Part shown: in pieces, positions 2,170 through 54,740 of the stretch
Layout of the letters: every line of letters begins with the position of its first letter
How positions within the stretch are numbered: the stretch's first letter is position 1
IMG/VR virus record: IMGVR_UViG_3300036760_000091
Coordinates: 1 to 58,355 of that record
From: a virus
Lineage: Duplodnaviria > Caudoviricetes
Reading direction: 5' to 3' (one strand)
Length of the DNA: 58,355 bases
The notes under the pieces: generated by a model
Database searches by the model: none
What the model saw: the letters and a program-made list of their open reading frames with translations, nothing else
Told to the model about the DNA's origin: nothing
Translations under genes and position numbers: made by a program

Positions 2170-2456
2170 GCCTGATGAACTGCTGCGGCGGACAGGCGCG
2201 GCCGCGCGAGAAGGGTGATCCGCCGATCGTGGTCGTGAAGGGCCGGTGTCCGCTCTGCATCCAGGCGGCGCATGAACTGGCCCTGCCGGCGGGCGTCGTG
2301 CCGTTCGTCATCGTGGCGCACACCATCACGGCGGCGGAAGAGGCGCTGATCGATCATTGCGACCTGTTCCACGGGCCAAAGGTCCCCGGCTTCGACATGA
2401 CGTTCGAGGAAACGAGCGCGCCGGGCCGGCCGATCACGCGGAGCATCAAACAGTGA
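2166..2456 (+). CDS. Hypothetical protein
   Basis: GTGA overlap with the terS stop. Confidence 0.55.
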   Translation: MSLMNCCGGQARPREKGDPPIVVVKGRCPLCIQAAHELALPAGVVPFVIVAHTITAAEEALIDHCDLFHGPKVPGFDMTFEETSAPGRPITRSIKQ

Positions 2457-2568
2457 GGCGCTACAGCGTGCTCGGGTCGTTGGTGAAGGACTCGTACTGG
2501 CGCGCGTTCATCTACGGGCTGATCATCGGCGGGCTGGTGGTCGACCTCGCGCACAAGGTAGCGAGGTC

Positions 2569-3408
2569 ATGGTGACGTTGATCCCAGGCGTGCCGGACGC
2601 CGACATCCGCGAGTTATTCGCGCTCTACGAGAGCCTGACGGCCCGCGAAGGCTGCGCGTTCAACACCTACTTCCCGGACGCGGGACCGCTCCGCCGGGAG
2701 CTGTATCCGCGCTCGCTGCTGTTCTGGCTGGCCGGCACGCTCGACCGGGAGCGCATGATGATGGCCGCGAACCGGTGCAGCAAGACCGTGACAGCGGCCT
2801 TTGAGATGACCAGCCACCTGACGGGCCTGTACAAACCGTGGTGGCCGGGCCGGACGTTCGAGGGGCCGATCGAGGCGTGGGCAGCGGGCGACACGCTCGA
2901 AACGACGCGGGACATCATCCAGAACGAACTGTGCGGGCCTCGGCAGCTGGTGAAGGTCAAGCGGTTCGCCGGCATGATTCCGCCTCACCTGATTCTCGAT
3001 CGGTCGCTGAAGTCGGGCAGCGTGAGCGAGTGCATCGACACGCTGTGGATCAAGCACCGGGAGCGGCACCACGGTGCGCCGTGCACGTCGGTCCTCCAGT
3101 TCAAGGCGTTCAACCAGGGCCGGCTGTCGTTCCAGGGGACGAGCAAGCACCTGATCTGGCTGGACGAGGAACCGCCCGAAGCCGGGGACGAAGCGCCCGG
3201 CGGGGGTGGCACGCCGAGCGGGAACGGAGACGTGGTCACAGAGTGCCTGTTGCGGACGGCGACGACCAATGGCCTGCTGATGTTGACCCTGACGCCGCTG
3301 CGCGGGCTGACGCCGTTCCTGGAGAGCTGTCTCGAGCGCGGGGTGATGGTGGACGCGGACGGCGCGGTCATCAACGCGAAGGTCGGGATGTTTGGAGCAG
3401 CAGCATGA
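2569..3408 (+). CDS. terL: Terminase large subunit, N-terminal ATPase half (P22 gp2-like)
   Basis: Walker A variant AANRCSKT, Walker B LIWLDEEPP, coupling motif TLTP(LRG); ORF stops before the lid and nuclease. Confidence 0.9.
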   Translation: MVTLIPGVPDADIRELFALYESLTAREGCAFNTYFPDAGPLRRELYPRSLLFWLAGTLDRERMMMAANRCSKTVTAAFEMTSHLTGLYKPWWPGRTFEGPIEAWAAGDTLETTRDIIQNELCGPRQLVKVKRFAGMIPPHLILDRSLKSGSVSECIDTLWIKHRERHHGAPCTSVLQFKAFNQGRLSFQGTSKHLIWLDEEPPEAGDEAPGGGGTPSGNGDVVTECLLRTATTNGLLMLTLTPLRGLTPFLESCLERGVMVDADGAVINAKVGMFGAAA

Positions 3409-3737
3409 GCACACAAGAAGAAGATTTCCAGCGGTTCTGTGAGGCCCTCCCTGCGCCGACGTGCGCGCCGAAGGACTGCACCCACCCGCAGCACGCCGCG
3501 TTTGTGGCGGTCAACCGGATGCTGGATAGCGGCCTGTTCTGCGCGGACGTCCGGATACGGTGCGTCGAGTGCGGCATCGACTTCCGGTTTACTGGTCTGC
3601 CCTCGGGCGTCCATCCGACGCAGCCGATGGTGTCGATCACGGGGACGGAACTCCGCGCGCCGATTGAGCCGGAAACCGAGACACGGCTCCACGAGACGGC
3701 CTCGTTCACCATGCCGGCCATCCCGACGAGGCACTGA
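3405..3737 (+). CDS. Hypothetical Zn-ribbon protein
   Basis: ATGA overlap with the terL-N stop; CVECG motif. Confidence 0.6.
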   Translation: MSTQEEDFQRFCEALPAPTCAPKDCTHPQHAAFVAVNRMLDSGLFCADVRIRCVECGIDFRFTGLPSGVHPTQPMVSITGTELRAPIEPETETRLHETASFTMPAIPTRH

Positions 3738-3739
3738 CA

Positions 3740-3964
3740 ATGACGACACCGTGGCCGATCGATAAGCAGTATCCGGGACAGCCGGAGCATGGCGACACCG
3801 TCCGGGTGCGTCCGCCCGGCCTCTACCCGCCGTTGCCGGCGGAACCGCGTCGAGTCGGCGGATGGAAGATCGCGCTCATCCTGTCGATCGGCCTACTGTC
3901 GGCCTTCGGCGCGGGTGTCGGCCTCGTGTGGCTCTGGGGTCGGTTCGTGATGTCCTGCTCATGA
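3740..3964 (+). CDS. Small membrane protein
   Basis: C-terminal hydrophobic helix IALILSIGLLSAFGAGVGLVWLW. Confidence 0.55.
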   Translation: MTTPWPIDKQYPGQPEHGDTVRVRPPGLYPPLPAEPRRVGGWKIALILSIGLLSAFGAGVGLVWLWGRFVMSCS

Positions 3965-3992
3965 CCGGGCGTATACTGTCCAGCACTCCACA

Positions 3993-4376
3993 ATGAACCG
4001 CCGGCACTTTCTCCAGTCGCTGCTGGCCGTCCCGGCGCTGACGCTCGCCCTGGCCAAGAAGCCCGAGGCGGCGCTGTGTAAATGCGGGAAGCCGATGCCG
4101 GCCCACCTGGCGCGGCTGACGCCGGAGGACTTTCAGGCGCGCTACATCCGGCCGGCGGCGCTGGCGATTGCCGCCAAAATTGACGAAGACTGCCTGCGCG
4201 CGTATCTCGAAGTCAACCGGCAGATGGACGAGTGGTACGGCGAGCCGGTAGGCGGCTGGAACGCGCGGCCGGTCACGCTGCTACCGCCGCAGCCCGATCA
4301 GGTGTTCATCGCGTCCGGCGGGCGGGGCTACATCCTCACTGGCAGCGGTATGGGATTCTCGGAACTGGAGGCGTGA
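3993..4376 (+). CDS. Twin-arginine signal protein with coat-like and gp10-like fragments
   Basis: MNRRHFL plus hydrophobic stretch and ALA; internal segments align with this genome's coat and gp10-like proteins. Confidence 0.7.
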   Translation: MNRRHFLQSLLAVPALTLALAKKPEAALCKCGKPMPAHLARLTPEDFQARYIRPAALAIAAKIDEDCLRAYLEVNRQMDEWYGEPVGGWNARPVTLLPPQPDQVFIASGGRGYILTGSGMGFSELEA

Positions 4377-4537
4377 TGGCGAAGACACTACACCCGACGA
4401 TGCAGGCGCGCGCAGCGGCCACGAAGGCGGTCTACGCGGAGAAGCGGACCGACCCGAGCTTCATGGCGAAGTCCCCGCGTGAGCGGATCGGCATCGTCAG
4501 CCGGGAAGTCTCGAAGCGCGGCGGCGGCACGAAGTGA
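4376..4537 (+). CDS. Small basic hypothetical protein
   Basis: ggagg RBS and TGATG coupling. Confidence 0.6.
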   Translation: MAKTLHPTMQARAAATKAVYAEKRTDPSFMAKSPRERIGIVSREVSKRGGGTK

Positions 4538-4734
4538 AACCGCTCACGCCTGAAGGCCGGGTCATGCGGCTGGTGCGCCGGGTGGCGTACCGTCTCGTGG
4601 GGATCCGCGTCGGGCCGGCGATGCTCCAGATCCGTGGCGAGTGGATTTACATCGGCCCTTGCGGCAAGACATGGCGTGTCGTGCCCACAGGCGACGAGCA
4701 CTCTCCGCTGATGATCATGCTGGAGAAGTACTAA
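4534..4734 (+). CDS. Hypothetical protein
   Basis: GTGA coupling. Confidence 0.55.
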   Translation: MKPLTPEGRVMRLVRRVAYRLVGIRVGPAMLQIRGEWIYIGPCGKTWRVVPTGDEHSPLMIMLEKY

Positions 4735-4844
4735 CCCAGACCCTCCGGGCTGCACGTCGAGGACGACGTGGAGCACCCTGCTTGTGGACTAGGCAAGGCC
4801 CGACCTCGGCGGGGTGCACCCGCCCGGCCCGGACGAACGAACCG

Positions 4845-5027
4845 ATGAACAGACGCCGCTTTCTCCACCTGTTGACGATGGCCGCTTCGGCGGTGGCGGT
4901 CAGTCCGTATTGGACGCCGACGCCGGAACTGGTCGAGCCGCTCCCTCCGCCGCCGGTCTATTCGGGCGACCCGTGGGTCTACGAATCCACCGTCACGCGC
5001 GTGGCCGCGATCGGGCCGACCAGATGA
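4845..5027 (+). CDS. Small twin-arginine signal protein
   Basis: MNRRRFLHLLTMAASAVAV; internal ATG of the 4641 ORF. Confidence 0.6.
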   Translation: MNRRRFLHLLTMAASAVAVSPYWTPTPELVEPLPPPPVYSGDPWVYESTVTRVAAIGPTR

Positions 5028-5115
5028 TCGCCATCGAAGTCGGTGGCGGAGTGCTCTACAACGGGTCACGCAGCACCCGACGGTCAAGTTCTGCGAGAAA
5101 GCTGATTGTGTAGTC

Positions 5116-5292
5116 ATGCTCGGAAGCCTCGGAATGCCGGAACTGGTTGTCATCGCGGTCGTCGTGCTGCTCATCTTCGGACCGAAGAAGCTGCCCGGCC
5201 TCGCGCGCGGCCTCGGAGAGTCGATCAAGGAGTTCAAGAAGGCGGGGAAGGAACTTCAGGACACGGTGAACGAGGCCCATGACCGCGACTAG
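5116..5292 (+). CDS. tatA: Twin-arginine translocase TatA/TatE family subunit (58 aa, not in the ORF track)
   Basis: MLGSLGMPELVVIAVVVLLIFGPKKLPGLARGLGESIKEFKKA: TM helix, FG hinge, KLP motif and amphipathic helix with FK. Confidence 0.92.
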   Translation: MLGSLGMPELVVIAVVVLLIFGPKKLPGLARGLGESIKEFKKAGKELQDTVNEAHDRD

Positions 5293-5590
5293 CTCCGGCC
5301 CGCTGTCGGAGGATGCGCGCACGGCGCTGCTGCTTGCGCAGGCTGCGCTGGAGAACGTCCATGAACCGCTCGACTCGAATGTGCTGGACGCGGTCAACGC
5401 CGTACTCGAGGCCGACAAGGCGCTGAAGGATCGCGTACATCCGGACCGCCGGCAGTTCTGGCTGATCCTGGATTGTTACCACTGGTACAAATGGACCGGG
5501 GACTCTCCCCATGCCAGCGAGTTGAAATGCCCAACGTGCGGAGCCGGCGCAACGGTCCTTGACCGTACCCCGGTGACGGAACGCCCATGA
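5279..5590 (+). CDS. Hypothetical Zn-ribbon protein
   Basis: CYH...CPTCG. Confidence 0.55.
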   Translation: MTATSSGPLSEDARTALLLAQAALENVHEPLDSNVLDAVNAVLEADKALKDRVHPDRRQFWLILDCYHWYKWTGDSPHASELKCPTCGAGATVLDRTPVTERP

Positions 5591-5994
5591 GCCGACACAA
5601 CGCGAGCGACCCGTTCAAGGAACTGCCAAAGGCGTTCTGGATCGGGCAGACCATCAAGGCGATCATTGCCACGACCGGCCCGAACCATCGCTACATGATG
5701 TTCCGCGAGGGGTTCGTGCCCTTTCAAGACCGCATCCTGCCAGCGTTCAACAGCATCAACCCGTGCAAGTTCGACGCGAACGACGCGCGGACGATCTGGG
5801 AGGGCCTGAAGAAGTGGTCCGCCCGGCACGAGGCGCATCTCCAGATCTTCCTCGACCGGGCCTTTGAAGAGACGCGCCGCCGGAGCTGGAAACAGGCCGA
5901 CGAGCCGCTCGGGGACAACCACAACCCGGACATCGAGACGGACAGCGTGAAGCACGGGCACGCCTCGTTCGAGAAGGGACGGATGGTCCGATGA
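5587..5994 (+). CDS. Hypothetical protein
   Basis: ATGA coupling; GC3-rich. Confidence 0.65.
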   Translation: MSRHNASDPFKELPKAFWIGQTIKAIIATTGPNHRYMMFREGFVPFQDRILPAFNSINPCKFDANDARTIWEGLKKWSARHEAHLQIFLDRAFEETRRRSWKQADEPLGDNHNPDIETDSVKHGHASFEKGRMVR

Positions 5995-6200
5995 CGCAAC
6001 CCACCGGCACGGCGCAAGGGCGCTGCGAGACGACCCAGACCGAGCGGTACGTCAACGCGGCCTGCACCTGCGACACGTACCCGGAGAACCTCGGCCCGTG
6101 CCTGCGCTTCGAGGAAGGCGAGCGTTCTGGGTTCTGCGTCTACTGCGATCACGGCGTGGGTTGTCATCAGCAATTGCTTCAAGCCGGGATCATTCCCTGA
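5991..6200 (+). CDS. Small Cys-rich protein
   Basis: ATGA coupling; several Cys/His pairs. Confidence 0.55.
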   Translation: MTQPTGTAQGRCETTQTERYVNAACTCDTYPENLGPCLRFEEGERSGFCVYCDHGVGCHQQLLQAGIIP

Positions 6201-6586
6201 TGGGTCGCAAAGCCCAAGCCAAGCGTGCGGAGAAGGCCACGAAGCCGAAGGGCCGCAAGACTGTCTCAGGGTCGAGGGACACCCGCGTCATGCAGCGACT
6301 GAAGAAGCTGATGCCGGAGATCACGACGAAGCACCAGGTGGAAGAGATGGTCGCGCAGTCGAGCAACCCGCGCGCGGCGCGGAAGCTCTATCTGCGCTTG
6401 CTCGGAGGGCGCTACGACGAGTTGCCCTGCTGCGGGAAGGCCGAACTGTGCCGCGTCCAGCACGCCGCGATCGAGCACGGCGACCGCTGTCCGGAGAAGG
6501 ACAAGCAGGTCGTGCTGCCGGATTCCGTCGACGGCCTTGCCGCCATGCGCTACGGCCGCGTCACCCGCGCGCTGGAGAGTCTGTAA
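6200..6586 (+). CDS. Hypothetical basic protein
   Basis: TGATG coupling at 6200 (MGRKAQAKRAEK...). Confidence 0.6.
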   Translation: MGRKAQAKRAEKATKPKGRKTVSGSRDTRVMQRLKKLMPEITTKHQVEEMVAQSSNPRAARKLYLRLLGGRYDELPCCGKAELCRVQHAAIEHGDRCPEKDKQVVLPDSVDGLAAMRYGRVTRALESL

Positions 6587-6709
6587 GTGGCGTTCAAGAC
6601 GAAGACCGCCGCGCGCGTCTACCACGCGAAGTGGCGGCAGTCGAACGGCACAGTGTCAAGAAGCGATATCGCAGAGTCGCTGATCGCGTATCTCATTGCG
6701 AGTAGGTGA
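6587..6709 (+). pseudogene. 40-codon ORF, possible endonuclease remnant, in frame with terL-C
   Basis: MAFKTKTAARVYHAKWRQSN...DIAESLIAYLIASR*; its ends resemble the termini of the endonuclease VII-like genes at 36480 and 37295. Confidence 0.35.
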
Positions 6710-6712
6710 CTT

Positions 6713-7528
6713 ATCTTTATAATCACGGCAAATTGGGACGACAATGCCCCACACCTTGACGCGAAGGCGCGCGCGGACCTGTGGGCGGCGATTCCGAATT
6801 ACCAGAAAGACGCGCGATCGAAGGGCATCCCGCAGTTGGGAGCCGGGGTCATCTACCCGATTCCCGACACGGACATCCTGGTCGATGCGTTCAAGATCCC
6901 GGACTTCTGGCCGCGCGGCTACGGCCTCGACATCGGCTGGAACAAGGTGGCGGTCATCTGGGACGCGATGGACCCGGACACGCTCGACAACGAGGGCGGA
7001 CCGACGATCTACCGGTACGACGAGCACTACGCGGGCGAGCAGCATCCGTCGATCCACGCGGAGGCTATCCGTCGACGCGGCGTCTGGATCCCCGGCGTCA
7101 TCGACCCGGCGGCGCGCGGCCGCACCCAGGACGACGGCAAGAAGCTGATTACGATCTGGCGCGCGGCCATCTACGGCGTCGAGGACATCTCGCTCGGCGT
7201 CCAGATGCTCGGCATCGCCAACAACGCGGTCGAGAGCGGCATCAGCCTCGAGTACACGGCTATGACGACGGGCCGGCTGAAGGTGTTCAAGAACCGCTGC
7301 CCGAACTGGATGGCGGAGCGCCGGCTGTATCGGCGCGATGAGCACGGCCGGATCGTGAAGAAGAACGACCACGCGCTCGACGCCGGCCGCTACCGGACCG
7401 CGTCCGGGACGGGGTACTTGAAGGCGAAGCCGGTGACGGCGCGGGAAGATCCCTTGTCGGCGTTTATGAGCGGCCATCGTGGTGGCTCTGGCAATAACGG
7501 GCAGATGCCCGGACTGGAGAATATCTGA
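6713..7528 (+). CDS. terL: Terminase large subunit, C-terminal lid plus nuclease half (homology extends upstream of the called TTG at 6836; start probably ATC 6713)
   Basis: Frame open from 6710: FIITANWDDNAPHL...DARSKGIPQLGAG, GLDIGWN, DPAARGR, NDHALDAGRY. Confidence 0.85.
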   Translation: MFIITANWDDNAPHLDAKARADLWAAIPNYQKDARSKGIPQLGAGVIYPIPDTDILVDAFKIPDFWPRGYGLDIGWNKVAVIWDAMDPDTLDNEGGPTIYRYDEHYAGEQHPSIHAEAIRRRGVWIPGVIDPAARGRTQDDGKKLITIWRAAIYGVEDISLGVQMLGIANNAVESGISLEYTAMTTGRLKVFKNRCPNWMAERRLYRRDEHGRIVKKNDHALDAGRYRTASGTGYLKAKPVTAREDPLSAFMSGHRGGSGNNGQMPGLENI

Positions 7529-10062
7529 TGGCCGGCGACGGAACCGAGGTCTACACCACCAGTGCACGCGGCGACAATCTCGCCGTGCCGAAGGATCTCG
7601 TCACCGAGTCGGCCACCGAGCGCGAGAAGGAGACGCCCGAGGCGAAGGCGAAGCGCGAGTCTGACGCCAAGACCATCCTCGAGACGATCAAGGAAATCCG
7701 GGCCACCGAGCGCGCAGAAGACCAGTTCCGGAAGGACGCGAAGGACGATGCGGACTTCCGTGTCGGCACGAAGGGTGATCGCCACTACCAGTGGCCCCCG
7801 CAGGTGGTCGAGAAGCGCAAGGCGGAGGGCCGGCTGATCACCACGATCAACCGGATGCCGAGTTTCGTCCGGCAGGTCACGAACCAAGCGCGTCAGGCCC
7901 GGCTCCGTATCCGCGTGAACCCGTCGGCCGGCCACGGCGCGGCGCGCGTCAAGATCGCGGAGGTCATCCAGGGCATCATCCGCAACATCGAGACGGACAG
8001 CTTCGCGGACCGGGCGTACAACAAGGCGGCAGACAAACAGGCCGAGCAGGGTCGGGGCTTCTTCCGGCTGATCACGGAGTGGGCGGACGAAAAGAGCTTC
8101 CAGCAGAAGATCAAAATCCGTCAGGAGAAGGACCCGCTCTGCATCTACTTCGATCCAAACTGCCAAGAGGCCGACTACTCGGATGCCTGGTGGGCGCACA
8201 AGATCGTAGACCTCTCCGACGACGACTTCGAGTCCCAGACCGGCGAGAAAGCGCCGACCGAGCAGCAGATCACAGCCTTTGTTGGAGACGACACCGACAA
8301 GAAGGACTGGTTCCCGGCCGGGAAGACGCGCTTCGTGGAGAGCTTTCGTAAGGAGAAGGACGGCCCGCCGAGAAAGCTGGCCGAACTGTCGACACCCACG
8401 CGCGACGTCATCGAATATCCCGACGAAGCCGGCCTGAAGAAGCTCAAGGACGCCGGTATCACGATCCTCCGGACCCGTGACGCTCAGAAATACAAGATGA
8501 CCTGGCGCAAGTTGACCGGGTTGAAGGTGTACGAGACGACGACGTGGGCCGGCGAGGCCCCGCCGTGGATTCCTGTCATTGGCGAAGAGAACGAAGCCGA
8601 CGGCGAATTGGACTTCCGGGGCGTGGTGCGTGACGCCAAGCAGCCCGCGATGCTCTTCAACGTCGAATCCGCCGCGCTCCTCGAGGCGATCGGCCTCGGC
8701 ATTAAGGCGTCGATCGTCGGCTACAAGGGCCAGTTCGGCGCGGAGAACAGCGCCACGCGCCGCGCGTGGGAATCCGCCAACACGACCCCGCACGTCTTCC
8801 TCGAGATCGAACCGGTCACGATCGACGGCAAGCCCGCGCCGATTCCGCAACGGCAGATGTTCGAGGCTCCGGTCGAAGCCATCATCGCTGGCATTCAACA
8901 GACGGACGCGGATCTGAAGAGCACCGCCGGCTGGCATGACGATTCCCTCGGGGTGGCCGGCCGGTCCGATTCCGGCAAGGCCATCACCGCCCGCCAGCGG
9001 CAGGACGAACTGGGAAGCTCGCACTACCTCGACAACCTCCGCTTCGCGCTGTGCTCGGCCGGCAAGCAGTTGATCCGGTTGATCCGGGTGACGTACACGA
9101 TGCCCCAGGTCGTCCGCATCACGGGCAACGACGACGTCGCGCGGGACGTGATGGTTTTCTCAGGCAAAGACGCGGATCCCCGCGACCAGCAGAACTGGCA
9201 GGTCCATCCGGCGAGCGCCACGCAGCATCACAAGACGGCAAAGGGCGAGATGATCGCCCCCGGCCAGCCGATTCCCTTTGAGCTACCGGAAGGCGTGAAG
9301 GAGATCTACGACCTGTCGGTGGGCGAGTTCGACGTTGAAGTCTCGGCCGCGCCGGACCCCGGCACGCGCCGGCAGGAGCAGATGGACGCGCTGACGGGCG
9401 TGTTCAAGACGCTCCGCCCGGAGATCACCGAGAAGTTCCTCGACCTCCTGTTCCAGTTGGGCGACCTCCCGGTCTTCCAGCAAATGAGCGAGCGCGCAAA
9501 GAAGCTCGGCCTCGGCATGTCGGACGACGACGGCCAGATGGCGAACTGGCCACCGGAGGCGCAGGCGATCGTCGGCAAGATGAAAGCCGAGCTTCAGAAG
9601 ATGCAGCAGGAGCTGCAGGCCGCGACGATGAAGCTGGCGACCAAACAGCCGGAACTCGAGAGCCGCGAGCGCATCGCCAAAGACAAGAACACGCTCGAGA
9701 TGATCCTTGCCCACCTGGACGACATGTCCGCGAAGTGGGAGATGCGCGCCAAGCACGAGACGGCGATCGCGGTGGCGGAAATCAGCTCGAAGGCCAAAGA
9801 GCCGGATCTCACGAAGGTCGAGATCGCGCGCCTCGGCGTGCAGTCCGACGACGCGCAGCGCGCGCACGAGTCGATTCAGGCCAACGCCGACCGGACGCAC
9901 GAAGCCACGCAGGCCGAGCAGGATCGTCAGCACGAAGCCGAGCAGGCCGAGGCCGCACGGACAGCGGCCGTGCAGGCGCAGGAGTCGTCACAGCAGCACG
10001 ACGCGGCGCAGACCGAGCGCGCCGCGCAGGCCGAGCCGACGGACGAAGGAGGCGGAGCGTAG
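7528..10062 (+). CDS. Portal protein (P22-like)
   Basis: QWP...TINRMPSFVRQVTNQARQ, GRGFFR, IYFDP, GVVRDAKQP and SGKAITARQRQ motifs; C-terminal coiled coil; follows terL. Confidence 0.92.
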   Translation: MAGDGTEVYTTSARGDNLAVPKDLVTESATEREKETPEAKAKRESDAKTILETIKEIRATERAEDQFRKDAKDDADFRVGTKGDRHYQWPPQVVEKRKAEGRLITTINRMPSFVRQVTNQARQARLRIRVNPSAGHGAARVKIAEVIQGIIRNIETDSFADRAYNKAADKQAEQGRGFFRLITEWADEKSFQQKIKIRQEKDPLCIYFDPNCQEADYSDAWWAHKIVDLSDDDFESQTGEKAPTEQQITAFVGDDTDKKDWFPAGKTRFVESFRKEKDGPPRKLAELSTPTRDVIEYPDEAGLKKLKDAGITILRTRDAQKYKMTWRKLTGLKVYETTTWAGEAPPWIPVIGEENEADGELDFRGVVRDAKQPAMLFNVESAALLEAIGLGIKASIVGYKGQFGAENSATRRAWESANTTPHVFLEIEPVTIDGKPAPIPQRQMFEAPVEAIIAGIQQTDADLKSTAGWHDDSLGVAGRSDSGKAITARQRQDELGSSHYLDNLRFALCSAGKQLIRLIRVTYTMPQVVRITGNDDVARDVMVFSGKDADPRDQQNWQVHPASATQHHKTAKGEMIAPGQPIPFELPEGVKEIYDLSVGEFDVEVSAAPDPGTRRQEQMDALTGVFKTLRPEITEKFLDLLFQLGDLPVFQQMSERAKKLGLGMSDDDGQMANWPPEAQAIVGKMKAELQKMQQELQAATMKLATKQPELESRERIAKDKNTLEMILAHLDDMSAKWEMRAKHETAIAVAEISSKAKEPDLTKVEIARLGVQSDDAQRAHESIQANADRTHEATQAEQDRQHEAEQAEAARTAAVQAQESSQQHDAAQTERAAQAEPTDEGGGA

Positions 10063-11083: not shown

Positions 11084-12214
11084 ATGACACCCACCGACCA
11101 GCAAAGCGATATCGAAGTCACTACCGCGACCCGATCGGTCGAGGAAGTGAACGCTTCGCTGGCCGAGGCTGCGCCCAAGCCTGCCGAGGCGAAGGTCCCG
11201 ACCGCCGCAGAGATCAAGACGGCGAGCGAATCGGCCATCGCAGAAGACGCCGCCGCCACGGGGTTGGACGCGGAAGTGCTCAAGGCCATCAACGACCTCG
11301 AGCCGCCGCCCGACAAGAAGATCGAGACGGTCCCGGAGCGCCGCGCGCGCATCAGCCGATCCACCAAGCGCGTCCTCGGAGAGATCGCCAAGCGGAAGAC
11401 GGCTGAAACCGAGCGCGACGACGCGCGCACGAAGCTGTCCGAGGCCACCGCCAAGATTGCGGAACTGACGGCGGGGAAACCTGCCGACGGTGCCGCTGCT
11501 GCGAAAGCAGCCCCCAACGCGGACGGGAAGCCCGCGACCACCACGCCGGAGTTCAACTTTCCCTCGTGGGAGAAGTACCAGGAAGAGCACCCGGACGCCG
11601 ACTTTACGGAATACAGTGACGCGCGCACCGACGCGCGATACCAGTACAACGAATCGCTGAAGACGAAGAAGCTCGAGTCGGAAGACATCGACAAGCGCAC
11701 GAAGCTCGCGTTTGATGACGCCGCCGCTGGCGAACAGGAAGTTCGCGCCGAGTTCCCGGACTACGACGAAGTGACGTCGAAGATCGTGCTCGCCACGATC
11801 GAGGTCGAGGAAAACGGTCAGAAGGTCATCAAGCCGGCTTCGGGCACCGTGGCCCTCCAGGGCGAACTGCTCCGGATGGGTGGCAAGAAGGGTGCGGCGT
11901 TCAATCGGTTCCTCGGACTCAATCCGGCCGACGCGAAGGCGCTCATGGAGTCGCCAACGCCTGCGGACTTCCTCCGTCTTTTTGGTCAACTCGAATATCG
12001 GTTCTCGCAGGCACCCGCCGCGCCGGCTTCCGCCGCCGCGACGACCGACGCCAAGCCTGCTGTGACCAAGACACCCAAACCCGCTGCGCCCGCCCCGCTG
12101 GCACCGGTTCGAGGCGCGCACTCTCCAACGAAGACGGCCGCTGATGTTGCTGAAGACGGCGAGGATGCGGACGACTACATCTCGCGCCGGAAACAGGAAC
12201 TGGCGTCTGCGTAG
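11084..12214 (+). CDS. Scaffolding protein
   Basis: Acidic Ala/Pro-rich coiled coil with FPDYDEV, directly upstream of the coat gene. Confidence 0.75.
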   Translation: MTPTDQQSDIEVTTATRSVEEVNASLAEAAPKPAEAKVPTAAEIKTASESAIAEDAAATGLDAEVLKAINDLEPPPDKKIETVPERRARISRSTKRVLGEIAKRKTAETERDDARTKLSEATAKIAELTAGKPADGAAAAKAAPNADGKPATTTPEFNFPSWEKYQEEHPDADFTEYSDARTDARYQYNESLKTKKLESEDIDKRTKLAFDDAAAGEQEVRAEFPDYDEVTSKIVLATIEVEENGQKVIKPASGTVALQGELLRMGGKKGAAFNRFLGLNPADAKALMESPTPADFLRLFGQLEYRFSQAPAAPASAAATTDAKPAVTKTPKPAAPAPLAPVRGAHSPTKTAADVAEDGEDADDYISRRKQELASA

Positions 12215-12225
12215 GAAGGTAGATC

Positions 12226-13449
12226 GTGGCTGATAACGACATTCTCACAGACGACGTCCTCGCCAAAGAGGCGCTGATGATCGTCGAGAACAACCTCGGC
12301 ATCACGAAGCTGATCAAGCGTCGATATGAAGGACGCTTCGCCCGTGAGGGCGGAAAGATTGGCGACCACATCGGCATCCGCAAGCCGGTTCAGTGGTCCG
12401 GTCGTGAAGGCGAAGTCATGGAGCCGGAGGGCGCGCAGGAACGCAGCGTCACCCTGAAGATCGACCATCTGATCGGTCAGGACCTCTCGTTCTCCAACGT
12501 GGACCTCACGCTGAAAATCGACATGTTCCGCGAACGGTATTTCGACACCGCTTGCGCGCGCATTGCGAACATGCTCGACCAGGCCGTCTGCCGGCAGTAC
12601 GTGAACATCCCGAACTACACCGGCGTCCCTGGCACGACCCCGACGACGTTGGACTCGTTCTTCGACGCCAGCGTCCTGATGTCGAACTTCGGCGTCCCCG
12701 GCCGTGGCCGGTCGATGGTCGTCTCGCCCCGCGTCGAGGCGTCGATCGTCAACGCTCTGAAGGGTCTGTTCCAGTCGGCCACCGCGCTCTCGAAGCAGTA
12801 CGAGACGGCGATGCTCGGCCATGTGATCGGCTTCGACTGGATCATGGACCAGAACATCAGCCTCCACACGATCGGCCTCCTCGGCGGCACCCCGCTGGTG
12901 ACGACGGCGAGCCAGAGCGGCTCGACCATCAACACGAACGGCTGGACGGCGACCACGGGCAAGGTCAAGCAGGGCGACATCGTCGGGTTCAGCGCGACCG
13001 ACGCCGTCAACCCGATGTCGAAGGATGACACCGGGGCGCTGCGCGGCTTCGTCGTGACCTCGGACACCACGGCGGACGGGTCGGGCAACATGACGATCCC
13101 GATCTTCCCGACGATGGAGTTCTCGGGGCCGTACCAGAACGTCAGCGCCCTGCCGGCGGCAAACGCGCCCGTGACGATCTTCGGATCGGCCTCGGCCTAC
13201 GCGAGCACCGCCACCAAGCAGAACCTGGCGATTCACACGGAGTGCATGACCGCCGCGTTCGTGGACCTGGACCTGCCGAAGGGCATGGCGATGGCCGCGC
13301 GCGCGAAGAGCAACAAACTCGGGCTGGCCATCCGGATCGTCAAGGGTTTCGACATCCGGACCAACCAGGAGCTGTGCCGTCTCGACGTGCTGTTCGGCCT
13401 CAAGGTCCTCTACGAGGACTTCGGATGCCGCGTGCAGTCGGCGCAGTAG
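12226..13449 (+). CDS. Major capsid protein (P22 coat family)
   Basis: ENNL...KIGDHIGIRKP, DLTLKIDMFRERY, GFDWIMDQN and C-terminal RLDVLFG motifs. Confidence 0.93.
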   Translation: MADNDILTDDVLAKEALMIVENNLGITKLIKRRYEGRFAREGGKIGDHIGIRKPVQWSGREGEVMEPEGAQERSVTLKIDHLIGQDLSFSNVDLTLKIDMFRERYFDTACARIANMLDQAVCRQYVNIPNYTGVPGTTPTTLDSFFDASVLMSNFGVPGRGRSMVVSPRVEASIVNALKGLFQSATALSKQYETAMLGHVIGFDWIMDQNISLHTIGLLGGTPLVTTASQSGSTINTNGWTATTGKVKQGDIVGFSATDAVNPMSKDDTGALRGFVVTSDTTADGSGNMTIPIFPTMEFSGPYQNVSALPAANAPVTIFGSASAYASTATKQNLAIHTECMTAAFVDLDLPKGMAMAARAKSNKLGLAIRIVKGFDIRTNQELCRLDVLFGLKVLYEDFGCRVQSAQ

Positions 13450-17490: not shown

Positions 17491-18942
17491 ATGCCACGCA
17501 TGAAGTACCCATCGTTTTGTGGGCCTTCCTACGTTGCTCAGTCAAGCATCACTGACTGCGAACAGTGCTTCAACCTGTTTCCAGAGAGCAACAAGGCTCC
17601 GAGCGCGAAGTCGCAGTACTCGCTGCTGCCGACGCCTGGCCTGAGCCTGCTGGCGACGGCGGACCAGGTGGGCGGACGCGCAATCTTCTGTGAAGGTGGG
17701 CGGGCGTTCTGCGTCATCGGGTCCACCTTTTACGAGATCAACAGCGACTTCACGTTGACGTCGCGTGCGACTGGGCTGAAGACAAACGCCAACCCCGCGA
17801 CGATCTGCGCGAACGACGATCTGAACGGCGAGGTCTTCGTCACGAGCGGCGGCAACGGCTACATCTTCGACCTGCCCACGAACACATGGACAGTCATCGC
17901 CAACCTGGTCGGCAAAGCCGACATGGGCGCGCACAGCGAAGGCTTCTTCCTCGCGCTTCAGTTCTCGACGTCGACGGTGTTTCAATCGAAGGTCGATGAC
18001 GGGCTGACGTGGGACCCGAACGACTTCTTCCAGCGATCGGCGTTCCCGGACCCGTGGAAGTCGCTGACGGTGACGCCGTCAGGACAGGTGCTCCTGCTCG
18101 GCACCGCCACGGGCGAACTCTGGGGCGATGTCGGCACGTCCCCGATCGCCTTCGCGCCGATCGGCGGGGCGAAGTTCAAGCAGGGGATCGTCTCGCCCTT
18201 CTCCGCGCGCGCGCTCGGGTCTTCGATGATCTGGGTGGCGCAGAACTCCGATGGCAACCGGACGATCCAGCAGCTGTCTGGCTACAACGCCTTCCAGGTC
18301 AGCACGCCGCCGATCGACTACGCGCTCCAGCAGTACGACGATATCTCCGACGCGGTGCCCACAAACTACGACCTCGAAGGGCACATGCACTACTCGTTGA
18401 ATTTCCCGAATGCGAATGCCAATTGGACCTTCGACCAGACGGAAGGCTTCTTCCATCGGCGCGGCACCTGGAACACCGGAACGGCCCAGTGGGATGCGTG
18501 GCGCGCGGGGCCTCATGCCGTCGTCTACGGGAAGCATGTCGTGCTCGATCGGCTGTCCGGCGCGGTCTATCAGCTCGGGACGCAGTTCGGCTACGACGCG
18601 GACAGCGGCCCGTTGCGCCGGATGCGGATTCCGCCGGCCATGAACGAGCGGCACCAGACGATGTACTACTCGGATCTCGAGGTGTACATGGAGGTCGGCC
18701 TCGCCAACTACAACGGCGCGGGCAGCAACCCCTTCCTGTATCTCGAGTCGAGCAAGGACGGCGGCAAGACCTTCGGCCATCGCCGCGCGCGCAGCTGCGG
18801 GGTCGCCGGCCGCTACCAGACGCGCGTGCGATGGGGCACGATGCACGCCGCGCGTGACCACGCGGACCGGCTGACCTACGACGCCCCGGTGCCGCTCCGG
18901 ATTACTGACGCGTACATCACCGTCGATGCCGGCACATCGTAA
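17491..18942 (+). CDS. Packaged DNA stabilisation / tail hub protein (P22 gp10-like)
   Basis: NLFPE...LLPTPGL, VSTPPID, EGHMHYSLNFP, SKDGGKTFG motifs. Confidence 0.85.
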   Translation: MPRMKYPSFCGPSYVAQSSITDCEQCFNLFPESNKAPSAKSQYSLLPTPGLSLLATADQVGGRAIFCEGGRAFCVIGSTFYEINSDFTLTSRATGLKTNANPATICANDDLNGEVFVTSGGNGYIFDLPTNTWTVIANLVGKADMGAHSEGFFLALQFSTSTVFQSKVDDGLTWDPNDFFQRSAFPDPWKSLTVTPSGQVLLLGTATGELWGDVGTSPIAFAPIGGAKFKQGIVSPFSARALGSSMIWVAQNSDGNRTIQQLSGYNAFQVSTPPIDYALQQYDDISDAVPTNYDLEGHMHYSLNFPNANANWTFDQTEGFFHRRGTWNTGTAQWDAWRAGPHAVVYGKHVVLDRLSGAVYQLGTQFGYDADSGPLRRMRIPPAMNERHQTMYYSDLEVYMEVGLANYNGAGSNPFLYLESSKDGGKTFGHRRARSCGVAGRYQTRVRWGTMHAARDHADRLTYDAPVPLRITDAYITVDAGTS

Positions 18943-23411: not shown

Positions 23412-25079
23412 ATGTCCGGACAATTCGTCTTCCAGGCATATCAGCAGGACTCGTCTCCAGTGACGAACGCCATTATGGCGGGCGGTGCTGCGCGGGCGCG
23501 CGGCGCGGAGGTCGCCGGGCAGGCATGGGGGGGGGCTGTTCAGGGCGTCGGCCAAGCCGTCGGTCAAACGCTGAACGACATCCTGAAGTACCGATCGCCG
23601 GAAGCGCAGGCCAAGCGCGCTGAGGCTACGCTGGCGCTCGAAGACACGAACGACACGCTGGCGATGCAGAAGGCGATGCGCGCGGCCGGTGGCGATCCGA
23701 ACGCGGCGCTGATGTCGCTCGATAAGGCCGGCGCGATCGGCGCGTCGACGAAGCTCCGCACCCAGATGAACGTGGAGCGCAACAAGGGCCTCGACACGCA
23801 CATCAAGGAACTCACGGTCCAGAAGGACAACTTCGAGCAGGCCACGAAGCTGATCGGCTCGGTGCCGGAGGCCGACCCGAAAGACCCGGACAGCCTCGCC
23901 AAAGCGAGCGAGGTCTACAAGTCGATCGTCCCGCAGTTGCGCGGGCTGCTGTCCGGCCCGGTGGACCCGGCCACGGGAAAGCCGACGCCCGGTGTCGGCG
24001 CGTCGATTCCGGACGAGTACAACCCGGACACCGTCCAGAAGATGCGGACCCTCGGGATGAGTGTCACCGAGGCCCTCAGCTACCGGAAGGAAGCGGCGGC
24101 GGAAGCGCGCGCGGCGCTCACGGGGGCCACGACGAAGGCCGAGCTGATCGACAAGATGACGACGTCGACGGCGAACTACCTCCGGACGGTCGACAACCCG
24201 GCGGAGTGGGCGAAGACGCTGGCTGGCGTCAAGCAGCTGGTGCCGCCGGACGTGGCGGACGCCATCATCGGCCGGTTCGATCAGACCTTCGATCCGAAAG
24301 TCTCGCCGCAGAAGGCCGCTGTGCTGCTCGAGAAGCCGAAGGAGACGACGTACGAACCGAAGAACGTCATCGCCACCGTGGCCGGGAAGCGCGTCCTACT
24401 CAGCGCCGGGTTCGATAAAGAGAAAAACCAGTGGTTTGCCCCGGACGCGCCTGGGGTGCCGCTGAAGAACGTCGTGGAGTTCGTGAAGGGGCCGGAAGGG
24501 CAGCTGACCACGGCTGACCGGAGCGAACTGACGAAAGCCGTCCAGGACAACCCGCATATCTGGAACCAGCTGACCGAGACAGCGCGGACGCAGATTGCCG
24601 GCGACCTGCACAAGGCCGGGTTCAAGTTCCCGATGATCGACCACGGGGCGAGCGTGGCAGCGGCCGAACGCTGGAAGATGGGCGCGCTGAAGGCGCTCGA
24701 CACCGAGTACGGCACAAAGCGCGGACTGAAAGGGCCGTTCGGGATGACGCAGGCGCAGTACGACGCCAAGAAGGCCGAGATCCTGACGTCGTACAACCTC
24801 CAGATCGGGTCGCAGGGCCAGCCGCCGCCGAAGCCCGCCGCGCCGCCGCCAGCGCCGGCACAGCCCGCGCCTCCCGCTGCTCCGGCCGCTGCCGCACCGG
24901 TTGCGCCGGTTCCACCGCCAGCGCCGGCCGCGCCCGCCGCGCCAGCCAAGCCGGCGACGACCGCTCCGGCGGCTGGAGAAGTGCCGTTGCACCTTCCGAG
25001 CGGGAACATTGCGTGGTTCAAGGACCAGGCCGCGCTCGATGCGTTTCTGAAGAAGCACAACCTGACCGTTAAAAAATGA
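23412..25079 (+). CDS. Putative DNA ejection protein
   Basis: Position in the ejection cluster; helical, with a Pro/Ala-rich C-terminal linker. Confidence 0.6.
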   Translation: MSGQFVFQAYQQDSSPVTNAIMAGGAARARGAEVAGQAWGGAVQGVGQAVGQTLNDILKYRSPEAQAKRAEATLALEDTNDTLAMQKAMRAAGGDPNAALMSLDKAGAIGASTKLRTQMNVERNKGLDTHIKELTVQKDNFEQATKLIGSVPEADPKDPDSLAKASEVYKSIVPQLRGLLSGPVDPATGKPTPGVGASIPDEYNPDTVQKMRTLGMSVTEALSYRKEAAAEARAALTGATTKAELIDKMTTSTANYLRTVDNPAEWAKTLAGVKQLVPPDVADAIIGRFDQTFDPKVSPQKAAVLLEKPKETTYEPKNVIATVAGKRVLLSAGFDKEKNQWFAPDAPGVPLKNVVEFVKGPEGQLTTADRSELTKAVQDNPHIWNQLTETARTQIAGDLHKAGFKFPMIDHGASVAAAERWKMGALKALDTEYGTKRGLKGPFGMTQAQYDAKKAEILTSYNLQIGSQGQPPPKPAAPPPAPAQPAPPAAPAAAAPVAPVPPPAPAAPAAPAKPATTAPAAGEVPLHLPSGNIAWFKDQAALDAFLKKHNLTVKK

Positions 25080-41942: not shown

Positions 41943-42197
41943 ATGCCGCGCGGTCGGTTGTCGATTTTCGGGAGCAAGGCGGACGGAGTCCAGGTGCACG
42001 GCGTGATCTCGAAGGTTGGGAGTCATCGGTTCGAGCGCGAGCGCAAGAAGCTCGCGGCCATCTACCTCGACGTCATCGGGAAGAAGCCAGCGGTCATCAG
42101 CGATGCGGACACGGTGGAGTTTCTGGCGCGCGGTGTCGCCGAGACGCGCAGCTGTCTTCACGATCTCAAGAAAGGACTGATACATGGCAAAGACTGA
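41943..42197 (+). CDS. Hypothetical protein
   Basis: aagggag RBS. Confidence 0.55.
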   Translation: MPRGRLSIFGSKADGVQVHGVISKVGSHRFERERKKLAAIYLDVIGKKPAVISDADTVEFLARGVAETRSCLHDLKKGLIHGKD

Positions 42198-47044: not shown

Positions 47045-48238
47045 CGAAACGTCAGATGACCGTCGGACGACTCATACGGCAGTTGATGAAGCTGCCACAA
47101 GGCGCGTTGGTCGCCGTGCCGACCGAAGAGGATCGGCTTCCGCAAAACCTTGAAAAGGTCGATGTCTACAGCTTCAGGGGCGAAGGCAGTCAGGAAGCGT
47201 ATGACTTCCAGAACGTCGACGGGAAGCGTCCGGGGCGGACGATCGTGGTGCTGCGATGAGCAAGTCGAACGCGAAACGGTCCCGGAACAGCTTCGTGCGC
47301 GGCGTCCGGGCCGAAACCGCGATCAACGTGCTCACGCGGGCGCTCGGGTATGTGCAGACCCGGTCGCACGAACAGGCCGTCACGATGATTCAGGAGCGGA
47401 TCGCGTTCTACCGTGAGGAACTGGCAGACGTGCACCGGAAGCGCGTCGGAGGGGTGTCCTGATGGCGGTCATCCACATCGTGGAAGAGAAGACCGGGCAG
47501 GTTGAGATCTGGGTTGACGTCCCCGGCGCGGAACTGGACGGCGTCATCGTCGGCGTGGGGGAATCGCGCGCGATGGCGATGGCGGACGCGGTCCGTACCC
47601 TCGAGGCGCTGACGGCGCAGCTGCAAAGCCCGCCGGACGTCTGGGAGACGGACCCGACGGATTACACCCTGCGCGGCCACAAGCGCGAGTTCACGATTGC
47701 CTCACATAGATTCGCGGGGGACATATGAAGTCGATCTACGCCGCACTCTGCCTGGGTGCCGCTGTCGGCATCGTCATCGGGTTCTGCATCGCCATGATGG
47801 TGCTCCGATGACAGCGTATCAGCGGATCGTGCTCCGGCTGCTCTACCACATGGTGCGAAACACCGTCAGCCGCAACGACGCGGAGGCGCAGAAGGCCATC
47901 AAGGACGCGCGCCAGATGCTGACCGATGACACCGATCCGGGCGAGGACGCGCCGATTTGATCCTGCTCTCGTTGACACGCGAGCAGGCGATGGCGGTCGC
48001 TGAGGCGGTGCCGGACCTCAGCGACCGTATCCAGGCCGACCTGCGGATGGATGCCGCGATCGACGGGTCGCCCCGGACCGTGCTGTATCGAGATATGGGC
48101 GACGGCCTCGTGGCGGCAGCGGTCGCGTTCTACGACTCCGACGCGGCCGAGCGCGCGGCCGAGGCGCTCTGGCAGGAGACGCTGCGGACCGCGCGACCCA
48201 TCGCACACGAAGATTCACAGGGAGAACTGTTTCGATGA
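47041..48238 (+). other. Run of small coupled hypothetical genes (47041-47259, 47256-47462, 47462-47728, ~47808-47960, 47957-48238)
   Basis: Mostly overlapping stop/start codons. Confidence 0.55.
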
Positions 48239-54739: not shown

Positions 54740-54740
54740 C

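Follow-up and report, generated by a model that had tools for sequence, protein, structure and literature searches.

Twin-arginine translocation (Tat) substrates carry an N-terminal signal with a twin-arginine motif (consensus S/T-R-R-x-F-L-K), followed by an uncharged h-region of about 12-20 residues and a c-region with an AxA site and basic residues. Signal-less partners can be exported as “hitchhikers” bound to a signal-bearing subunit, as with the Escherichia coli hydrogenase-2 and DMSO reductase subunits. Local segments of capsid proteins can also act as immune triggers: the sensor CapRel contacts the P-domain sheet and spine helix of a major capsid protein, where the escape mutations also lie (PMC9712102). 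The Gol peptide of T4 gp23 activates Lit. Phages further encode small membrane or periplasmic superinfection-exclusion proteins, such as T4 Imm and Sp, P22 SieA, and T5 Llp. Here, we describe a small phage protein in which a twin-arginine signal precedes short segments related to the head proteins of its own phage. It belongs to a widespread, undescribed family and its gene lies close to a phage-encoded TatA gene, which points to an unknown way in which phages use mimicry of their capsid.

The gene was found in a 58,355-nucleotide stretch of DNA (the window), the IMG/VR record IMGVR_UViG_3300036760_000091 of a Caudoviricetes virus, estimated to be 84% complete. The features relevant to this analysis are as follows.

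2569..3408 (+), large terminase, ATPase half (phrog_31467, E = 7.8e-52; Terminase_6N, E = 5.6e-4); the Tat gene cluster lies between this and the nuclease half
3993..4376 (+), gene for the 127-aa Tat-signal chimera
3993..4055 (+), twin-arginine signal peptide, aa 1-21 (MNRRHFL, h-region, ALA), with the cleavage site inferred from sequence only
4056..4103 (+), linker, aa 22-37, with the CKCGKPMP motif
4104..4223 (+), coat-derived helix, aa 38-77, homologous to P22-type coat aa 92-131 (spine-helix region)
4209..4241 (+), aa 73-83 (EVNRQMDEWYG), resembling the coat N-arm motif VNRxYDDxFG (coat aa about 28-38); probable, not firm
4257..4364 (+), Hc3/gp10-derived beta-hairpin, aa 89-124
4845..5027 (+), second small RR-signal ORF (60 aa, MNRRRFL)
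5116..5292 (+), phage-encoded TatA/E homolog (58 aa)
6836..7528 (+), large terminase, nuclease half (PDB 4dkw_A, large terminase, E = 3.9e-14; phrog_5653, E = 5.8e-18)
11084..12214, scaffold candidate
12499..12618 (+), segment of the phage's own coat gene (aa 92-131 of ORF 12226-13449; phrog_283, E = 3.8e-68, and PF11651) that corresponds to the helix
17785..17868 (+), segment of the phage's own Hc3/gp10-like gene (aa 99-126 of ORF 17491-18942; phrog_578, E = 6.6e-63) that corresponds to the hairpin

The 127-aa ORF has an ATG start, and its codon-position GC (0.70/0.48/0.86) is typical of the genes in the window, indicating that it is real and coding. Its N terminus, NRRHFLQ at aa 2-8, fits the twin-arginine consensus, and 13 uncharged residues followed by ALA-KK fit the remainder of such a signal (SLLAVPALTLALA followed by KK). 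AlphaFold2 (AF2) predicts a helix at aa 3-20, and aa 1-30 are 63% identical to the Tat signal of a protein from a Bryobacterales MAG. However, the formal profile scores of this protein are below the curated cutoffs. Pfam TAT_signal (PF10518) gives E = 0.0071 and 16.7 bits against a cutoff of 22.7 bits, and TIGR01409 gives no hit, while 7 of 28 relatives hit the latter at E up to 1 (best, 1.8e-4); TAT_signal or TIGR01409 hit 8 of 31 and 7 of 28 members. Because these short models often miss true signals, this lowers the formal call and not the likeness. A lipoprotein signal was rejected: the first Cys is aa 29, preceded by A-A-L and separated from the h-region by KKPE, so that no lipobox (L-[AS]-[GA]-C) is present at the end of the h-region.

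A first-pass annotation, made from the sequence alone, had proposed that aa 41-71 align without gaps to a segment of the phage's own coat protein (10 of 31 identities) and that a later stretch matches the gp10-like protein encoded at 17491. Both similarities it had reported were confirmed. The coat segment lies at coat aa 95-125, where we also count 10 of 31 identities (BLASTP, 9/28 identities, 21.6 bits), and the gp10-like segment lies at aa 113-126 of ORF 17491-18942 (BLASTP, 12/28 identities, 24.3 bits). Within the window alone, these matches are marginal and chance likeness of an ordinary exported protein remains conceivable. Against 62 window proteins (15,367 residues), they are the two best hits, with E values of 0.038 and 0.27; of 300 shuffles of the protein, 3% reach 24.3 bits as the top hit, 3% reach 21.6 bits as the second hit, 21% reach 21.6 bits, and 2 of 300 reach both.

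Comparison at the family level strengthens both matches. A coat HMM of 24 sequences hits the protein at E = 6.7e-7 among 68 small proteins (HMM positions 95-129 aligned to aa 42-76) and at E = 1.1e-4 among 11,248 small ORFs. An hhalign comparison of the small-protein family with the coat family gives Prob 96.4 and E = 1.3e-9, whereas the portal control gives Prob 0.3, and 18 of 28 family members hit phrog_283. AF2 predicts a helix at aa 44-82 with pLDDT above 90. Among the 11,248 small ORFs, the coat HMM hits 9, of which two are truncated real coats and all 7 others are RR-signal ORFs, although RR-like ORFs make up only 89 of the 11,248. For the hairpin, phmmer finds the Hc3 of a relative (locus L048, aa 103-140; itself phrog_578 at 4.8e-107) with 19.4 bits and E = 2.8e-5 among 1,323 ORFs, with further hits to the Hc3 of loci L050 and L047. 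An hhalign comparison of the close family (alignment A1) with the Hc3 family gives Prob 72.8 and E = 3.2e-5, which is moderate support; AF2 predicts strands at aa 103-108 and 111-116. Chance likeness is thus refuted for the coat helix, and as an explanation of the whole it is highly improbable.

Only fragments are shared with these head proteins. Only aa 38-77 align to the coat, a Pfam scan of the protein gives no PF11651 hit, and the full-length HK97-fold protein of about 400 aa is not matched. Likewise, only aa 89-124 align to the roughly 480-aa profile of phrog_578, and none of 28 members is listed with phrog_578 at E up to 1. The first-pass annotation had also loosely likened the MDEWYG region to the coat C terminus, which did not hold; this stretch instead resembles the coat N-arm motif. 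That assignment rests on a post hoc motif count (NRxxDxx[FYW]G), which gave 8 matches in 12,751 ORFs, 6 of them in coats at positions 30-31, 1 in the protein described here, and 1 in another ORF. The same order, spine helix and then N-arm, is seen in the family protein P0012 (coat HMM 14-57, i-E = 2e-6). A complex prediction for the coat with aa 36-127 returned a score of 0.00, which we count neither way, and a search of the ESM Atlas gave no usable hit for the protein.

The protein has five close homologs, and 25 short relatives were found in 1.84 billion representatives. In 28 of 28 relatives, R3, R4, and P54 are invariant, while F6, Y51, A55, and D64 are conserved at 90% or more. Conservation of the RR motif together with the coat-like helix, whose absence the first-pass annotation had named as grounds for rejecting its own proposal, is therefore observed, and both segments give significant profile matches. 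The CKCGKPMP motif of the linker is invariant in the 6 closest members; CxCG also occurs in proteins P0009, P0012, P0013, and P0014, in two of them after LLWVPGxK. Fifteen long proteins also hit the A1 profile, at positions 54-116, through up to 10 summed repeats. The 6 of these that were scanned are all WD40 proteins, but the protein described here has no WD40 hit, and we interpret the similarity as a shared hairpin-like pattern and not as kinship. A tBLASTn search of 50,697 GenBank phages gave only three hits, at E = 2. Searches for loci related to A1 found none in viral or metagenome contigs, and in genome contigs the only hit was the Tat signal of the Bryobacterales MAG enzyme.

Our analysis shows that the wider family is not rare. 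Of two subalignments used for locus searches, one found nothing and the other found 41 IMG/VR loci carrying small RR-signal ORFs, usually with an LLWVPGxK motif. All 41 of 41 loci found with patterns that did not include RR carry RR 15-31 residues before LLWVPG, with F at RR+2 in 37 of 42 matches and L at RR+3 in 31 of 42. GC content ranges from 41% to 66%, and at least two and probably three capsid families are represented. The cargo is often a 30-70-residue piece of a head protein, which may be the coat N-arm, spine helix, I-domain, or C-end, or the portal N-end, and it can be of a different capsid family. Mature parts searched against 1,323 large ORFs hit almost only coats, plus Hc3 (the protein described here and P0002) and portal (P0013).

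This mosaic, variable cargo, together with the absence of a detected source for 18 of 40 proteins from the collected loci (the L series), would be compatible with debris of little function, in which a conserved signal-peptide cassette repeatedly captured pieces of late genes by illegitimate recombination. We consider this very unlikely. The helix is kept in 28 proteins drawn mostly from representatives of 50%-identity clusters, with the same positions conserved as in coats; 16 L-series proteins keep the same N-terminal piece; the fragment is only 32% identical to its own coat, so it is old rather than a recent capture; and the frame has coding GC3.

The fragment type follows the carrier phage's own capsid type. 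(i) P22-type pieces occur in phages with P22-type coats. (ii) In a complete 100.9-kb phage (G001), the TatA-adjacent RR protein matches aa about 85-128 of its own phrog_1357 capsid protein (E = 1.8e-7). (iii) Sixteen of 40 L-series proteins match aa 3-59 of a 416-aa protein, which was found in the same genome in 5 of 5 records searched. This 416-aa protein has no sequence match in the PDB or in GenBank phages, its AF2 model (pLDDT 32.5) is unusable, and hhalign against P22-type coats was not significant (E = 0.63). The only lead is to Atlas clusters in which 15% of members carry SU10_MCP; therefore, we call it a probable capsid protein, on this lead alone. Six of 6 further own-genome searches (L011, L012, L027, L021, L140, and L139b) found no second copy of the cargo, although these records are only 18-86% complete.

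The helix, however, is closer to the consensus of other phages' coats (46-48% identity to those of L018 and L048) than to its own (32%), which ranks 16th of 18 coats in likeness to the fragment and has lost the family's PAV motif, which the fragment keeps. Likewise, the hairpin is closer to the Hc3 of L048 (20 of 36 identities by our count) than to its own Hc3 (12/28). Several paralogs occur per genome (the window, L005, L018, and L139). These observations would fit a weapon against related phages, in which dominant-negative fragments bind the coat or Hc3 of a coinfecting relative and the signal drags these to the membrane, while the carrier's own proteins have diverged enough to escape. We regard this as unlikely, because in L003, L015, and L038 the own coat is among the best matches (ranks 4, 6, and 1), so that escape of self is not general. 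In addition, no integrase or repressor was seen in the window, although it is only partly annotated and 84% complete, and late coexpression with the phage's own head genes would expose its own assembly to the same poison.

A TatA gene lies 740 nt downstream (PF02416, E = 4.8e-22, 77.4 bits against a cutoff of 21, profile positions 1-46 of 53; phrog_29532, E = 1.2e-6). TatA/E proteins have an N-terminal TM helix, an FG hinge, and an amphipathic helix; LLIFGP and the following helix are conserved in three phage copies, while no match was found in GenBank phages. In all 5 distinct viral TatA loci found (the window, L021, L124, L139, and L140/L141), an RR ORF abuts TatA or lies within about 1.1 kb; three of these loci were found through TatA alone. 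The second RR ORF of the window (weak Rieske Tat-signal hit, E = 0.0069; GC3, 0.82) has no detectable virion fragment. Because TatA is the only Tat component encoded and always sits beside RR ORFs, and because the cargo is made of head-protein pieces, a lysis or depolarization clock is conceivable: RR proteins whose cargo is built into, or bound to, large head structures could not pass the translocase and, with extra phage TatA, would lock it open and leak the membrane potential, tying lysis or shutoff to the state of head assembly. This remains very doubtful, as there is no direct evidence for it, no lysis genes were identified in the window, and, among 121 loci plus the window, TatA was found only in the window and L021, being absent from most loci that have RR ORFs.

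The gene lies in the head module, between the terminase halves and upstream of the portal, as in L003, L011, L015, L018, L021, and L028, whereas in some phages it lies among replication genes. Its position, the fact that the N-arm and the spine helix are the commonest pieces, the match in capsid type, and the conservation in the fragment of the positions conserved in coats allow for a regulator or membrane tether of the phage's own head assembly. In this view, the pieces would dock onto the surfaces that these segments normally contact in neighboring subunits or scaffolding protein, and the uncleaved signal would anchor a few assembling shells or free subunits at the inner membrane, pacing or placing assembly. 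This seems unlikely for several reasons. A conserved assembly role would be expected to use the same piece everywhere, but the piece varies (N-arm, spine helix, coat HMM 166-208, 231-315, 364-405, portal, and Hc3). By the positive-inside rule, an N-in anchor would put the cargo outside the cytoplasm, and most relatives of this phage lack the gene. The family may also evolve fast: if P0003 (59% identical to the protein described here) and P0044 (a coat 98% identical to that of the window) share a contig, as the identical figure of 20,028 for their longest contigs suggests but does not prove, the small protein diverges far faster than the coat.

Taken together, the sequence data establish a small chimera with a predicted twin-arginine signal peptide, a short Cys-containing linker, a 40-residue helix homologous to the spine-helix region of P22-type coats, probably a short N-arm motif, and a beta-hairpin homologous, with moderate support, to part of the Hc3/gp10 head-closure protein; they also establish its membership in a large family with the same kind of signal, often with head-protein cargo of the carrier's own capsid family, and the proximity of phage TatA genes to such genes. 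Function, including export and any binding, is inferred. The protein would be made with the head proteins and taken to the host Tat translocase, whose capacity the phage TatA would raise. By presenting conserved segments of coat and Hc3, the cargo would compete with the real proteins for whatever binds them, and the signal would then hold that partner at the membrane or carry it out of the cytoplasm.

The first-pass annotation's interpretation is partly supported: the architecture it described, a twin-arginine signal followed by virion-protein pieces, is supported and generalized, whereas its suggested functions (a decoy for capsid-sensing defenses, poisoning of competing assembly, or jamming of Tat) remain hypotheses. 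The TatA pairing strengthens the link to Tat, and the correspondence in capsid type argues that the target of the mimicry is something that deals with the phage's own kind of capsid. We tentatively favor a decoy against host proteins that recognize capsid protein, given that CapRel contacts exactly the P-domain sheet and spine helix, with competition with assembly partners as the close second. Neither a partner nor export has been demonstrated, however; an exported cargo would end up in the periplasm, where neither capsid proteins nor known capsid sensors are, and a fragment that binds a sensor such as CapRel might trigger it rather than block it. Also counting against this reading are the Tat profile scores below the cutoffs, the 18 of 40 L-series proteins with no detected source for their cargo, the negative further own-genome searches in incomplete records, the second RR ORF with no detectable fragment, the greater likeness of the helix to other phages' coats than to its own, and the location of the gene among replication genes in some phages. 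A more far-reaching but unlikely possibility is a Tat-based “eviction” device, in which phage TatA and a family of adaptors catch capsid-recognizing host proteins, such as immune sensors, and, because Tat moves folded complexes, carry them out of the cytoplasm or pin them at the translocase; this would be counterdefense by export, with the fragment repertoire tracking what the hosts sense.

No Pfam or PHROG family covers this architecture, and literature searches found no description of it, in agreement with the first-pass annotation, which knew of no described function. It would be the first case that we can find of phages encoding their own Tat component together with dedicated Tat-signal proteins, and the first family of proteins assembled from short pieces of capsid, portal, and head-closure proteins. 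Whatever the function, the family gives a direct handle on which local parts of a capsid protein matter to some partner in the infected cell, and it makes testable whether phages counter capsid-sensing immunity with mimics and whether the Tat pathway is used for this. These ORFs and the adjacent tatA could be annotated as a recognizable module.

With the P22 coat family (PF11651/phrog_283), the protein shares 40 residues aligned in register, including the conserved F, R, P-A, I-D, and Y positions, but it has no HK97 fold and is not a coat protein. With the Hc3/P22 gp10-like family (phrog_578), it shares a hairpin-forming stretch of about 35 residues that matches aa 99-140 of family members, again as a fragment only. 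As in CapRel sensing and Lit activation, where short or local parts of an HK97-fold capsid protein, including the spine helix, are what a host protein recognizes, such parts are involved; in those cases, however, the segment is part of the capsid protein and serves host defense, whereas here a free copy is encoded by the phage behind a predicted export signal, and no sensor is known for this phage. Like the superinfection-exclusion proteins, it is a small phage protein with an N-terminal signal or anchor, nonessential, and variable among relatives, although it shows no sequence likeness to them, and none of them is reported to use a Tat signal, to be made of capsid pieces, or to be paired with a tatA gene. 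Finally, it shares with Tat substrates the RRxFL motif, a moderately hydrophobic h-region, an AxA site followed by basic residues, and a nearby Tat component gene, but its cargo is not an enzyme or cofactor protein; it is a patchwork of short pieces of virion proteins, encoded by a phage together with its own TatA.

The record analyzed here, a whole IMG/VR virus record of 58,355 bases, is linear, with an estimated completeness of 84%, a G+C content of 65%, and essentially all genes on the + strand. The ORF at 3993-4376 starts with ATG and encodes 127 aa exactly as given in the first-pass annotation, and its codon-position G+C (0.70/0.48/0.86) is that of the real genes of the window. It sits in a tight run of small ORFs, several with overlapping stop and start codons, between the two halves of a split large terminase. 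The features that concern us are as follows.

2569-3408: large terminase, ATPase half (phrog_31467, 7.8e-52)
3993-4376: ORF with a twin-arginine (RR) signal, 127 aa, the subject of this analysis
4534-4734: 66-aa ORF of the cluster
4845-5027: second small ORF with an RR signal (MNRRRFL), 60 aa
5116-5292: TatA/E homologue (PF02416, 4.8e-22)
6696-6723: sigma-70-like promoter match
6836-7528: large terminase, nuclease half (PDB 4dkw, 3.9e-14; phrog_5653, 5.8e-18)
7528-10062: portal
12226-13449: P22-type coat (phrog_283, 3.8e-68; PF11651)
17491-18942: Hc3/gp10-like protein (phrog_578, 6.6e-63)
25076-35635: single ORF of 3,519 aa with coding GC3, downstream of the head and neck genes
42184-43170, 48235-50061, 51933-53354, and 54651-55790: an Erf-like annealing protein, two helicases (one DnaB-like), and a DNA methyltransferase, in the right half of the window

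The terminase halves are 3,427 nt apart, with about ten small ORFs between them, including the Tat cluster. Of 88 loci with a match to the ATPase half (counting the window and its duplicate, locus L001), 34 are split, with gaps from -83 to 3,427 nt (the window's is the largest), 48 are fused, and 6 show no nuclease part in the fetched stretch. The promoter match (TTGCGA, 16 nt, TATAAT; 10 of 12), just upstream of the nuclease half, is the only one of its type in 3300-7600, and no terminator-like site occurs in that region. No integrase was seen among the ORFs scanned. Because the named relatives of the coat come from Vicinamibacterales and Acidobacteria metagenome-assembled genomes, an acidobacterial host is likely, although this is an inference.

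The first-pass annotation had claimed that the ORF carries a coat-like and a gp10-like stretch, and both are found where it placed them. BLASTP gives 9/28 identities (21.6 bits) to the coat and 12/28 identities (24.3 bits) to the gp10-like protein. Against all 62 predicted proteins of the window, these are the two best hits, but only at E values of 0.27 and 0.038, respectively. Of 300 shuffled versions of the protein, 3% reach the top score, 3% reach the second score as second hit, and 2 of 300 reach both. Taken alone, the observation is suggestive and no more; once relatives are considered, it holds, firmly for the coat helix and with moderate support for the hairpin.

The protein has five close homologues at 52-66% identity, in which the first 35 residues, covering the signal and a CKCGKPMP motif, are almost invariant. 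A profile search of 1.84 billion representative sequences found 40 proteins at E values up to 1e-3, of which 25 are short (70-170 aa) and match profile positions 1 to about 74. The other 15 are long proteins that match positions 54-116 many times over; the 6 of these that were scanned are all WD40 proteins, and we set the group aside as a repeat-summed hairpin likeness. In an alignment of 28 short proteins, R3, R4, and P54 are invariant, and F6, Y51, A55, and D64 are conserved at 90% or more. Thus, the RR motif and the helix are conserved together. Scanned individually, 18 of the 28 hit phrog_283 (major head protein; best E value, 4.4e-5), while no other family is hit by more than two.

The consensus of 24 P22-type coats has the same F, R, [LI], P-A-V, [IL]-A, I-D, and Y pattern, in the same register as the small family. 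A profile-profile comparison of the two alignments (hhalign) gives Prob 96.4 and E 1.3e-9 over 40 columns, aligning aa 38-77 of the window's protein to coat aa 92-131, whereas the same query against a portal alignment gives Prob 0.3. The window's own coat has drifted at this site and lacks the P-A-V, which explains the weak match within the window; of 18 coats, it ranks 16th in likeness to the fragment. Some P22-type coat homologues of 444-465 aa (P0101, P0106, P0125, P0127, P0128, and the ORF at 5690-7087 of locus L021) are predicted with an N-terminal extension of about 45 residues holding a hydrophobic, membrane-like stretch, which could reflect wrong start calls or a real feature.

For the gp10-like hairpin, the mature part of the protein was searched against 1,323 ORFs of 200 aa or more from related viral contigs. 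The best hit is the Hc3 protein of locus L048 (aa 103-140; 19.4 bits; E 2.8e-5), with 20 of 36 positions identical by our count of the alignment, and the Hc3 proteins of loci L050 and L047 also appear. The L048 ORF is phrog_578 at 4.8e-107. An HMM of 14 Hc3 proteins ranks as its top six hits exactly the six family members that have the hairpin, all aligned at HMM positions 96-132, though weakly (E 0.004-0.25 among 68). The hhalign comparison of the six close homologues with the Hc3 family gives Prob 72.8 and E 3.2e-5. We take the hairpin to be probably derived from Hc3, with moderate support.

Between helix and hairpin, aa 73-83 resemble the coat N-arm motif VNRxYDDxFG. A motif written after the match had been seen occurs 8 times in 12,751 ORFs: six times in coats, once in the window's protein, and once elsewhere. 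In P0012, another member of the small family, the spine-helix piece is likewise followed by a clear N-arm piece. An AlphaFold2 model on the 28-sequence alignment (mean pLDDT, 77.9) predicts a signal helix at aa 3-20, one long helix at aa 44-82 (pLDDT above 90), and a hairpin at aa 103-116.

A locus search with four members that carry an LLWVPGxK motif found 41 IMG/VR loci. Although the search patterns did not include RR, all 41 have RR 15-31 residues upstream in the same frame, with F at RR+2 in 37 of 42 matches. The ORFs are 69-168 aa long, with variable ends. The coat HMM matches different members at different coat regions: the N-arm (L003 at 1e-11, L015, L029, and P0012), the spine helix (the window's protein and 20-odd others), positions 166-208 (P0033), positions 231-315 (L038 at 2e-11, L040, and L020), and the C-end (L015 and the L005 ORF at 8331-8654). 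P0013, a 90-aa member, has an end that matches the N-end of portal proteins (portal HMM 11-54, E 1.4e-6) after a spine-helix-like piece, so that the cargo can mix pieces of different virion proteins.

As a background control, the coat HMM was run on all 11,248 small ORFs (40-180 aa, six frames) of the loci. It hits nine, of which two are real coats cut by contig ends. The other seven all start with an RR signal (one, in L003, was missed by our strict filter and recognized by eye), whereas RR-like starts make up only 89 of the 11,248. Of the 40 proteins of the L series of loci, 16, from low-GC phages, instead match aa 3-59 of a 416-aa protein (E 5e-16 to 1e-6). The latter is encoded elsewhere in the same genome in 5 of 5 records searched and follows a 316-aa ORF, but its identity as a capsid protein is only a lead. 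A further 18 of the 40 have no detected source, and six additional own-genome searches were negative, all in incomplete records. In the window itself, no virion fragment was detected in the second RR ORF, which is proline-rich after the signal. The 66-aa ORF of the cluster has homologues in L039 (E 4e-15) and L041 (E 1.6e-6), low-GC phages that also carry RR ORFs, but there the homologue is not adjacent to them.

The second RR ORF lies between the 127-aa ORF and the TatA/E homologue. No TatA was found in 50,697 GenBank phage records, but IMG/VR holds four other viral TatA loci, and each has an RR ORF of this family touching it. In L021, TatA (988-1149) is followed by an RR ORF from 1130 and then the portal; in L124, TatA (3974-4141) is followed by an RR ORF from 4138; in L139, two RR ORFs lie just downstream; and in L140/L141, an RR ORF ends where TatA starts. 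Three of these loci were found through TatA alone. In L139, an ORF of 428 aa (2279-3565) starting with a translational-GTPase G1 motif (EF-Tu/CysN-like by eye) lies just downstream of the module of TatA and two RR ORFs, after a 71-aa HTH-like ORF. L124 belongs to a complete 100.9-kb phage, in which the mature part of the RR protein matches aa about 85-128 of that phage's own capsid protein (E 1.8e-7). Because this capsid protein belongs to another family (phrog_1357, 7.7e-17), the spine-helix-region fragment recurs in an unrelated capsid lineage. Profile hits to Tat-signal models are subthreshold for the window's protein, while they are seen in 7 of 28 and 8 of 31 relatives. We conclude that the N-terminus is a real Tat signal, an inference that rests on motif, conservation, and gene pairing.

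What our analysis establishes is the architecture, the family, its pairing with TatA, and the matching of fragment type to the carrier's own capsid type. That the protein is exported, that it goes to the Tat translocase, and that its cargo acts by mimicry of conserved head-protein segments are inferences about how it most likely works. A known bacterial sensor, CapRel, contacts the P-domain sheet and spine helix of a capsid protein, and the escape mutations map there (PMC9712102); a free copy of that region is therefore a plausible decoy. However, a bound sensor might be triggered, and export would take the cargo away from the cytoplasm, although the second point would not count against a decoy if removal of the bound partner is the purpose. 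The rival explanations, each rated less likely, are an assembly tether, interference with related phages, a Tat-jamming clock, and debris; none of the four is excluded. A complex prediction gave no verdict. The first-pass interpretation is partly supported, in its architecture of virion-protein pieces behind a Tat signal, while the decoy, interference, and Tat-jamming functions that it proposed remain hypotheses.

Pfam and PHROGs hold no family for the protein, and full-text literature searches, supplements aside, found no paper on phage TatA or on signal-bearing capsid-fragment proteins. A 2026 review of Tat evolution mentions phages only for phiX174 E with SlyD and in its reference list. We therefore regard the protein, from a family sampled only shallowly here, as new in kind, any function proposed for it being inferred from sequence alone. 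In this comparison, the protein would work like a Tat substrate, but it is not a member of the coat or Hc3 families, because only fragments align.
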